From: an uncultured Rikenellaceae bacterium | GTDB taxonomy: Bacteria > Bacteroidota > Bacteroidia > Bacteroidales > Rikenellaceae | Direction of reading: 5' to 3' | Length of the DNA: 64,000 bases | NCBI GenBank assembly: GCA_964600025.1 | Contig: CAZRHJ010000004.1 | Coordinates: 11,833 to 75,832 of the forward strand | Shown: positions 50,803-51,332 of the stretch, one piece after another | Numbering within the stretch: position 1 is the first letter of the stretch | Layout: every line of letters starts with the position of its first letter | Translations under genes and position numbers: made by a program | The notes under the pieces: model-generated | What the model was told of the DNA's origin: nothing | The model's input: the letters and a program-made list of their open reading frames with translations, nothing else | Database searches by the model: none

Positions 50803-50957
50803 AATGGTTCTAAAAAAAGATTAATAGGGAATACCGTGAAAAACTGTAACAGCTCCCGCTGCTGTGAGTTCCTTAATAGATTTTAACAGTCTTATCCACT
50901 GATTTACAATAAATTGGGAAGGAGTTAGAATTGGAACAAGTCAGAAGACCTGCCATT
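50803..50957 (+). promoter_or_regulatory. Cobalamin (B12) riboswitch aptamer
   Basis: Conserved core AATAGGGAATACCGTGAAAAACTGTAACAGCTCCCGCTGCTGT, then CCACTG...GGGAAGG, and the B12 box AGTCAGAAGACCTGCC. P1 pairs AATGG (50803-50807) with CCATT (50953-50957). Confidence 0.85.
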
Positions 50958-51006
50958 TGATATTTGTTTTGTGCTTTCGGGAAGGCGGCTCAAAAACTTT
51001 AAAACT

Positions 51007-51040
51007 AATTTTCTTTGCAAAAAGAAAATTATCTTTTGTC
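51007..51040 (+). terminator. Candidate riboswitch expression-platform terminator
   Basis: AATTTTCTTT-GCAA-AAAGAAAATT stem-loop followed by ATCTTTTGT. The stem is AU-rich and weak. Confidence 0.35.
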
Positions 51041-51061
51041 CTCCCATAATTTATTAAGGTT

Positions 51062-51318
51062 TATTGCTGTCCGTTAAAAATTTTAAAAATTATTGTAATG
51101 GATAAGCGATAACATATTACAGTGTTTTAATTTATGAGGGGCTTGGAAAACTGATTTTTAAAATTTTTATCTTTCCGAAATCATACAAGCTCCCAATAAA
51201 CTCGGATCTCTTAGGCTATTTTGCTGATGGTCATAACGTAGCGTACTGGCGTACGTGAGTTATGAGCATCGGTGAAATAGACAAGATAGGCGAGTTTCGT
51301 TTTTAGCAGACAACAATA
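51062..51318 (-). mobile_element. Repeat family copy J: 257-bp long variant (core plus 100-bp extension module) inside the nrdD leader
   Basis: TATTGCTGTCCGTTAAAAATTTT..., then about 100 bp of extra sequence, then a core nearly identical to copies C and D, ending ...TTTTTAGCAGACAACAATA. Confidence 0.9.
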
Positions 51319-51332
51319 ATTAAAGTTATACT

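Follow-up and report, generated by a model that had tools for sequence, protein, structure and literature searches.

A probable miniature inverted-repeat transposable element between the cobalamin riboswitch and nrdD of an uncultured Rikenellaceae bacterium

Insertion of copy J into the nrdD leader

We analyzed a 64,000-nucleotide stretch of DNA (the window) from contig CAZRHJ010000004.1 of an uncultured Rikenellaceae bacterium, in which the genes for the anaerobic ribonucleotide reductase NrdD and its activating protein NrdG follow a cobalamin riboswitch. Between the riboswitch and the start codon of nrdD lies a 257-bp repeat, referred to here as copy J. Copy J is very probably a non-autonomous DNA transposon, a transposable element of the miniature inverted-repeat type (MITE), of a lineage-specific family. 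Three lines of evidence indicate that it was inserted into a pre-existing leader: a target-site duplication, the other copies of the family, and the shorter, element-free leaders of relatives. We favor the reading that J is a passenger tolerated in the 5′ untranslated region (UTR) with control by vitamin B12 retained, and put the probability of this reading as a whole at about 0.7.

The family was defined by a BLAST search with positions 51040-51332 against the window, by a repeat finder, and by an nhmmer profile, all of which agree. Eight full copies, with nhmmer E-values of 1e-33 to 1e-54, and about eight fragments are found in the 64 kb (Table 1). The copies range from 93 to 257 bp, the short form being 157 bp. 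An earlier note on this DNA had placed the borders of copy J exactly, and the BLAST and nhmmer searches show further copies in the window. The long variant represented by J is a genuine member of the family, because its left module also stands alone at 11759-11862. The core of J is 96-97% identical to 8795-8935 in copy A and to 15345-15480 in copy B, while the other copies are 72-93% identical, suggesting the family has long been active and J belongs to its youngest group.

In J, the terminal inverted repeats (TATTGCTGTCTGGTAAAAA against the reverse complement of TTTTTAGCAGACAATA) are 19 nt long and match at 16 of 19 positions. Copies A, B, C, E, H, m1, and m2 likewise have inverted repeats at both ends. 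The 9-bp duplications vary in sequence among the copies, with 9/9 identical positions in B, 8/9 in J, H, and m2, and 6/9 in A. At least 8/9 is reached by four of the eight complete copies. At random placements in the window the probability of such a match is 5e-4, giving a binomial p of about 4e-12. No open reading frame (ORF) of 50 or more amino acids is present in 50551-51332, and the longest AUG-started frame within J has 14 codons. Applying the definition of a MITE as in PMC4596501, we found those features that can be tested here: small size, many copies, inverted repeats, target-site duplications, and no transposase ORF.

Two other classes of bacterial repeat were considered and rejected. 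Repetitive extragenic palindromes and bacterial interspersed mosaic elements (REP/BIME) are palindromes rich in G-C that measure 20-40 bp, bear a GTAG or CGTC head, and do not duplicate their target; the elements here are AT-rich, measure 93-257 bp, and have both terminal inverted repeats and duplications. An identity with the Correia/NEMIS elements does not hold either, the duplication being 9 bp and not TA, and the inverted repeats 19 nt rather than 26 bp and of another sequence.

To place the insertion in time, the leader was compared with those of 80 Bacteroidales nrdD loci (the relatives), in which the aptamer was searched for by single-sequence nhmmer. In 41 of the 80, this search placed the aptamer immediately upstream of nrdD. 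In an Rfam check of 10 relatives it was confirmed in six, one of which nhmmer had missed, so the arrangement of riboswitch and nrdD is present in at least 42 of the 80. From the end of the P1 helix of the aptamer to the ATG, the median distance in the 41 is 147 nt (range 52-445) and that in the window 369 nt; the leaders of the relatives are about 220 nt shorter. Excising J together with a single duplication copy (266 nt in all) leaves a leader of 103 nt, which would end ...CCUCCCAUAAUUU AUUAAGGUU AUACU AUG. The reconstructed junction sequence lacking J is CATAATTTATTAAGGTTATACTATGAG. None of the 80 loci holds a copy of the element. The comparison with related leaders, which the earlier note had asked for, thus speaks against J being the ancestral leader. 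The insertion is derived, and its 9-bp target, ATTAAGGTT, lay 5 nt upstream of the ATG. It is probably also recent, because the core of J is so close to A and B and the duplication has a single mismatch. Since the target site was duplicated, positions -14 to -1 before the nrdD ATG are as they were before the insertion, except that the right duplication copy carries one substitution.

Copy J is not the only member of the family in this region. A degenerate short copy, I, and a solo right end lie just 5′ of the riboswitch promoter (50583-50719). Counting J, the region upstream of nrdD has been struck at least three times.

Consequences for the control of nrdDG

All conserved parts of the riboswitch lie upstream of J. 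The aptamer is recognized by Rfam model RF00174 at 98.4 bits, well over the gathering score of 31.5 bits, and the 3′ strand of its P1 helix ends at about 50962, near the end of about 50957 given in the earlier note. Common to the relatives right after P1 is a hairpin with loop CUUUCGGG, the counterpart of which in the window is P13 at 50966-50997. A CTTTCGGG motif is found 23-35 nt past CCTGCC in most of 40 aptamer-bearing relatives and in the same place in the window. In a sequence-level test, CGGGA (50978-50982) is complementary to UCCCG in L5 (50854-50858), and we take P13/L13 to be the kissing-loop partner of L5, as established for cobalamin riboswitches. Platforms further downstream are heterogeneous among the relatives. 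In the window, an A-U hairpin of -8.5 kcal/mol, its stem almost wholly A-U, is followed by UCUUUUGU and a pyrimidine run, a layout also seen in several relatives (for example L017 and L005). The earlier note had described a weak terminator-like platform at 51007-51040. The hairpin is there, but it fails a simple terminator scan because it has fewer than three G-C pairs; that scan flagged no intrinsic terminator on the + strand between 50400 and 51500. Canonical terminators in the window reach -17 to -19 kcal/mol. Comparative genomics by Rodionov and Vitreschak (2003) reportedly found that a cobalamin riboswitch controls the B12-independent nrdDG or nrdAB where the B12-dependent NrdJ coexists.

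In a motif scan, the TACATTTG site was the sole TAnnTTTG with a -33 box upstream of nrdD. The best form of this promoter in the window, TATCTTTG with TTTG at a spacing of 20-21, stands ahead of several genes and one tRNA, so the organism clearly uses this promoter type. As the earlier note recognized, J fills nearly the whole leader past the expression platform. A transcript starting from the only consensus promoter (50788-50795) must therefore carry it. The hairpin expected for that transcript, with roughly 75 bp per arm, is ruled out by folding. The predicted fold of J is multi-branched, with 93 pairs, -84.4 kcal/mol, and z = -8.1. It is closed by an 18-bp stem formed by both terminal inverted repeats, and the long-variant module contributes two small branches. 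The longest hairpin, the main hairpin at 51198-51297, has 39 pairs and -47.7 kcal/mol.

Under the favored reading, transcription of nrdDG would start near 50800, from the single consensus promoter upstream of the aptamer. The riboswitch would still sense corrinoid, and any decision made within the platform would be unchanged. Transcripts that continue would carry J as a self-contained folded domain, the pairing of its inverted repeats bringing the platform and the start region back together. J would contribute no promoter. The net effect on nrdDG expression would be neutral to moderately negative, and the element would be tolerated rather than recruited for a function. Dampening of expression, one of two outcomes suggested in the earlier note, is plausible. 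RNAs of MITEs co-transcribed with neighboring genes affect the mRNA through RNase III or through stability (PMC2229807). For J, the long duplex might be cleaved by the double-strand-specific RNase III, which has been proposed for Correia elements; mRNA stability might also be affected, as it is by ERIC (PMC2229807). Some transcripts might terminate at the main hairpin and the UUUCGUUUUU behind it, and the four additional upstream AUGs that the leader carries with J could be a further cost.

Bacteroidia ribosomes work without Shine-Dalgarno pairing, initiation requiring low structure and bases such as A at -3 (PMC6847099). The start context of nrdD is kept: A is found at -3 and AUUAAAGUUAUACU is unpaired in the predicted fold. 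Such insertions are evidently tolerated elsewhere in the window: only 13 nt separate m2 from the rpoN ATG, and only 7 nt separate C from that of a MATE transporter gene.

Several points weigh against the favored reading. No autonomous element with matching inverted repeats is found within the 64-kb window. Searches of 5.8 billion proteins and 185,579 species genomes gave 84% identity for the NrdD of the window to its best relatives, and neither an empty-site allele nor a close relative was found. Because the closest NrdD is this distant, the orthologous intergenic DNA cannot be aligned and the pre-insertion state is reconstructed, not observed. The riboswitch may act on transcription or on translation, the A-U hairpin being a poor terminator and the platforms of the relatives heterogeneous. 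If the platform must sit close to the start codon, the 266-nt insertion could weaken control. Lastly, in J, A, B, C, D, G, and m1 the fold of the sense strand is the more stable of the two strands, and G-U wobbles outnumber C-A mismatches by 8 positions to 3, both of which could mean a functional RNA.

The same two observations argue for a different account, that the repeat is a functional RNA module acting in processing, stability, or translation control, which spread through UTRs and was selected before nrdD. Consistent with this, J, m2, E, and H are in sense to the gene transcribing through them and only C is antisense, and two copies end 13-14 nt before a start codon. However, a covariation test of the main hairpin found 93.8% of cells paired and no covariation above controls: the observed score is attained in 214 of 500 shuffles, and changes in both partners are seen in only two pairs. 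As for the G-U bias, it goes back to a common ancestor, and 8 versus 3 is not significant per position. The repeat has no Rfam family, even at E-values up to 10. Its variants are modular, truncated, and degenerate, as in decaying mobile DNA, and the target-site duplications and inverted repeats already account for its spread. We consider selection as an RNA module unlikely.

Similarly improbable is that J, in sense, works as a transcription terminator or a strong attenuator, with nrdDG largely silenced at any B12 level. The main hairpin does end in CUCG/CGAG, flanked by an A-tract and a U-tract and then UUUCGUUUUUAG; UUUCGUUUUU directly behind it lies 24 nt before the ATG, and many copies of the family are found 3′ of genes or between convergent genes. 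The base of the stem is weak, however, with 4-7 pairs and then a 4x4 internal loop, and the scan that passed over the A-U hairpin did not flag the main hairpin either. The T-run belongs to the right inverted repeat, with an A-run as its counterpart in the left one, and its presence therefore needs no role in termination. Separate canonical G-C-rich terminators (again -17 to -19 kcal/mol) adjoin copies B, D, and G, indicating the element is not what terminates there. Copies m2 and E stand in sense immediately 5′ of genes that must be expressed, rpoN among them, and nrdD and nrdG themselves are intact and highly conserved.

A bolder version of the RNA module, which we hold to be quite unlikely, would make the transcript of the element a mobile, sense-specific unit. 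The long duplex would guide processing by RNase III, which at nrdD would detach the riboswitch from the message once the transcriptional decision had been made and reset mRNA stability or translation, and the self-closing stem of inverted repeats would let the module sit at a fixed 13-14 nt before start codons (as at nrdD and rpoN) with the upstream regulators intact. If true, this would be a post-transcriptional layer spread by transposition.

The other outcome suggested in the earlier note was a partial uncoupling of nrdDG from B12 through a promoter within J. In such a case an outward promoter, at 51168 or elsewhere in J, would allow transcription independent of the riboswitch. The long-variant module does contain TTTTTATCTTTCC at 51164-51176 and, within it, TATCTTTC at 51168, which is directed toward nrdD and matches TAnnTTTG at 7 of 8 positions, one base off as the earlier note had it. 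Correia elements have been reported to carry putative promoters (PMC2229807). The mismatch in TATCTTTC, though, falls on the final G of the TTTG core, and no -33 TTTG is present 15-24 nt upstream of it. The site is not kept in sister copy G, which has TGATTTTC, and is missing from the short copies. One-mismatch variants of the motif occur 13 times per kb per strand, and the 361-nt leader has four where about 4.7 are expected, so the near-match is at chance frequency. No exact TAnnTTTG was found in the motif scan between 50796 and the nrdD ATG. We conclude that an internal promoter, and with it the uncoupling, is very unlikely.

An assembly artefact, in which a misjoin placed riboswitch and nrdD on either side of a collapsed repeat, is barely credible. 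The contig does come from an uncultured organism, and repeats of 157-257 bp that are nearly identical may give rise to misjoins. But at least 42 of the 80 relatives have the two flanks side by side, and here a 9-bp duplication links them, with excision yielding a leader of normal length.

The locus offers a clean natural experiment: a recent insertion with known borders splits a riboswitch from its gene, and base-by-base reconstruction of the ancestral leader is possible. It is suited to asking, in a phylum without initiation led by the Shine-Dalgarno sequence, whether a Bacteroidales cobalamin riboswitch acts at a distance, on transcription, or must sit close to the start codon. The repeated presence of copies within 7-14 nt of start codons fits a good tolerance for such insertions in genes that lack a Shine-Dalgarno sequence.

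The family in the window and beyond

Of 1,999 bases belonging to the element, 1,987 are intergenic and make up 30% of the intergenic DNA in the window. Copies are present in 14 of the 23 intergenic regions of at least 100 nt. MITEs have been met in 5′ UTRs before, and at this density an insertion into the largest intergenic region of the window is unsurprising. The copies at start codons, m2 and C, suggest either a target preference for the AT-rich stretch just 5′ of an ATG or tolerance at such sites. In m2, which ends 13 nt before the rpoN ATG (5873, - strand), the geometry is the same as that of J at nrdD.

Beyond the window, the element had no BLAST match in phages and plasmids and no match in a pattern scan of viral contigs. 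A pattern scan of JGI metagenome contigs gave eight matches of 39-41 nt, all of them due to chance, and no full element. The family is a new, very dense MITE family with a 9-bp duplication, found only in this lineage among the collections searched.

The nearest known systems are the MITEs of Porphyromonas gingivalis (BrickBuilt, MITE239/464; PMC4596501), from the same order. Like the family described here, they are small, AT-rich, non-coding, multi-copy, and intergenic, have terminal inverted repeats and target-site duplications, and include truncated and modular variants. Their sequences show no similarity to ours, nor do the inverted repeats agree (TATTGCTGTCTGG... versus GAGACCTTTGCA). In BrickBuilt the duplications vary in length and an internal minisatellite is present, unlike the regular 9 bp and the lack of a minisatellite here. 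A density of 10-20 per genome is reported for P. gingivalis, far below the roughly 16 copies or fragments in 64 kb here.

Two further families resemble ours. As with Correia/NEMIS in Neisseria (PMC2229807), the inverted repeats pair in the transcript, the element is often co-transcribed within UTRs, an RNase III substrate is plausible, and an internal segment distinguishes long from short variants. Correia elements differ in their TA duplication, 26-bp repeats, IHF site, and mapped promoter-like boxes; the family in the window has a 9-bp duplication, no promoter consensus, and an unrelated sequence. ERIC/IRU (RU-1; PMC2229807) is likewise intergenic and co-transcribed, an imperfect palindrome of about 127 bp whose long RNA hairpin influences how stable the mRNA is. 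It comes from another phylum, has a different sequence, and lacks clear 9-bp duplications, whereas the family here combines a conserved internal hairpin with separate terminal repeats. As for the leaders themselves, an aptamer directly upstream of nrdDG is shared with at least 42 of the 80 relatives; what sets the window apart is the 257-bp mobile element between platform and start codon.

Other features and observations

The coordinates of the features are collected in Table 1.

Table 1. Features of the nrdD locus and members of the MITE family in the window
Feature	Position	Strand	Evidence or detail
Bacteroidetes-type promoter candidate for the riboswitch transcript	-33 TTTG 50760-50763; -7 TACATTTG 50788-50795	+	Consensus match (motif scan); spacing 24
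Cobalamin riboswitch aptamer RF00174	50788-50971	+	Rfam, 98.4 bits, E=2.4e-23, full model 1-189
P13 regulatory hairpin, L13 loop CUUUCGGGAAG	50966-50997	+	Fold; motif conserved in relatives
Remaining expression platform	A-U hairpin 51006-51031; U-rich tail 51032-51039; pyrimidine box CCUCCC 51040-51045	+	Fold
Left copy of 9-bp target-site duplication	51053-51061	+	ATTAAGGTT, 8/9 identical to 51319-51327
Copy J, long variant of the MITE, 257 bp	51062-51318	+	BLAST, repeat finder, nhmmer
Left inverted repeat of J	51062-51080	+	TATTGCTGTCCGTTAAAAA
Extra module of J, about 100 nt, after left end	51085-51184	+	Specific to long form
Core of J common to short copies	51178-51318	+	Includes main hairpin 51198-51297
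Right inverted repeat of J	51300-51318	+	TTTTTAGCAGACAACAATA
Right copy of target-site duplication	51319-51327	+	ATTAAAGTT, positions -14 to -6 of nrdD
nrdD, anaerobic (class III) ribonucleoside-triphosphate reductase	51333-53432	+	TIGR02827, 963.7 bits; intact, 699 aa
nrdG, activating protein of NrdD	53410-53898	+	TIGR02826, 158.6 bits (cut-off 151.7); overlaps nrdD
Mini copy m1, 122 bp	4314-4435	+	Inverted-repeat pair enclosing a perfect 21-bp hairpin
Mini copy m2, 93 bp	5887-5979	-	Duplication AAACTTAAA / AAACTCAAA (8/9); right end 13 nt before rpoN ATG
Copy A, short form, 157 bp	8795-8951	-	Repeat finder, nhmmer; duplicated right end adjacent at 8960-8998
Half copy, left module of long variant alone	11759-11862	-	76% identity to J
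Copy B, 157 bp	15340-15496	-	Perfect 9-bp duplication GTTGGTAAA; between ung stop codon and terminator 15297-15332
Copy C	19799-19955	-	Left end 7 nt before ATG (19963) of MATE transporter gene
Copy D, diverged, left inverted repeat degenerate	about 29500-29655	+	nhmmer
Copy E, diverged, about 72% identity	41446-41616	+	nhmmer
Degenerate short copy I	50583-50692	+	nhmmer match 50637-50692, E=1.6e-6
Solo right end	50701-50719	+	Terminal inverted repeat match
Copy G, without left inverted repeat	about 57610-57774	+	nhmmer; TTTCCGAAATC module common with J
Copy H	58848-59003	-	Duplication AAAAAATAC / AAAAAACAC (8/9)
Further fragments	16233-16251, 44005-44064, 61451-61490		Family search

One further structure in the nrdD leader was considered and set aside. 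In the minimum-energy fold of the full leader, 50988-51002 (GCUCAAAAACUUUAA, 3′ of P13) forms a helix with 51320-51338 (UUAAAGUUAUACUAUGAGU), the latter covering both the right duplication copy and the start codon; the duplex has z = -2.8. No counterpart was found in 35 relatives, where the mean z is +0.4 and none falls below -2. As a regulator this helix would be unconserved and its logic the reverse of B12 repression, and it is probably fortuitous.

Other arrangements are seen in the nrdD leaders of the relatives. The unusually long leader (241 nt) of one Bacteroidales metagenome-assembled genome, L028, holds an inverted repeat at 5871-5952 with 29-nt arms that are 79% complementary. No second copy of it was found among the fetched loci, the long leaders L028, L023, L040, and L004 being checked for repeat insertions. 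In Phocaeicola and Bacteroides relatives, a second cobalamin riboswitch stands back to back with that of nrdD, about 100-300 nt upstream and on the opposite strand (L050 at 5333-5538 on the - strand, L061, L071, and L041). L050 has a third at 11997-12195 on the - strand.

Within the family, m1 lies between the convergent lacZ-like gene and rpoN. Its hairpin arms, AAAAAGGTAATTTCAGAAAAC and GTTTTCTGAAATTACCTTTTT, are followed by a T-run, and the hairpin is an inverted duplication of the TTTCAGAAAT module found in copies C, D, G, and J. At copy A, a 43-nt stretch comprising its right end and flank (8790-8832) is duplicated 166 nt away at 8956-8998 with 98% identity. A promoter-like TATTTTTG at 8780-8787, with a -33 box at a spacing of 21, is directed through copy A to the gene at 9021, and copy A may therefore lie antisense in the 5′ UTR of that gene. 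Copy B is inserted between the ung stop codon, itself contained in the duplication GTTGGTAAA, and a bidirectional terminator of canonical form, AAAAGCTACCC TTT GGGTAGCTTTT, at 15297-15332 between ung and a convergent gene.

The GC content of 35% and the relatives of its NrdD assign the organism to Bacteroidales, as a low-GC lineage. Downstream of nrdDG (54106-56445), a gene whose product has NYN and cold-shock domains is followed by thyA and folA, a cluster for deoxynucleotide metabolism.

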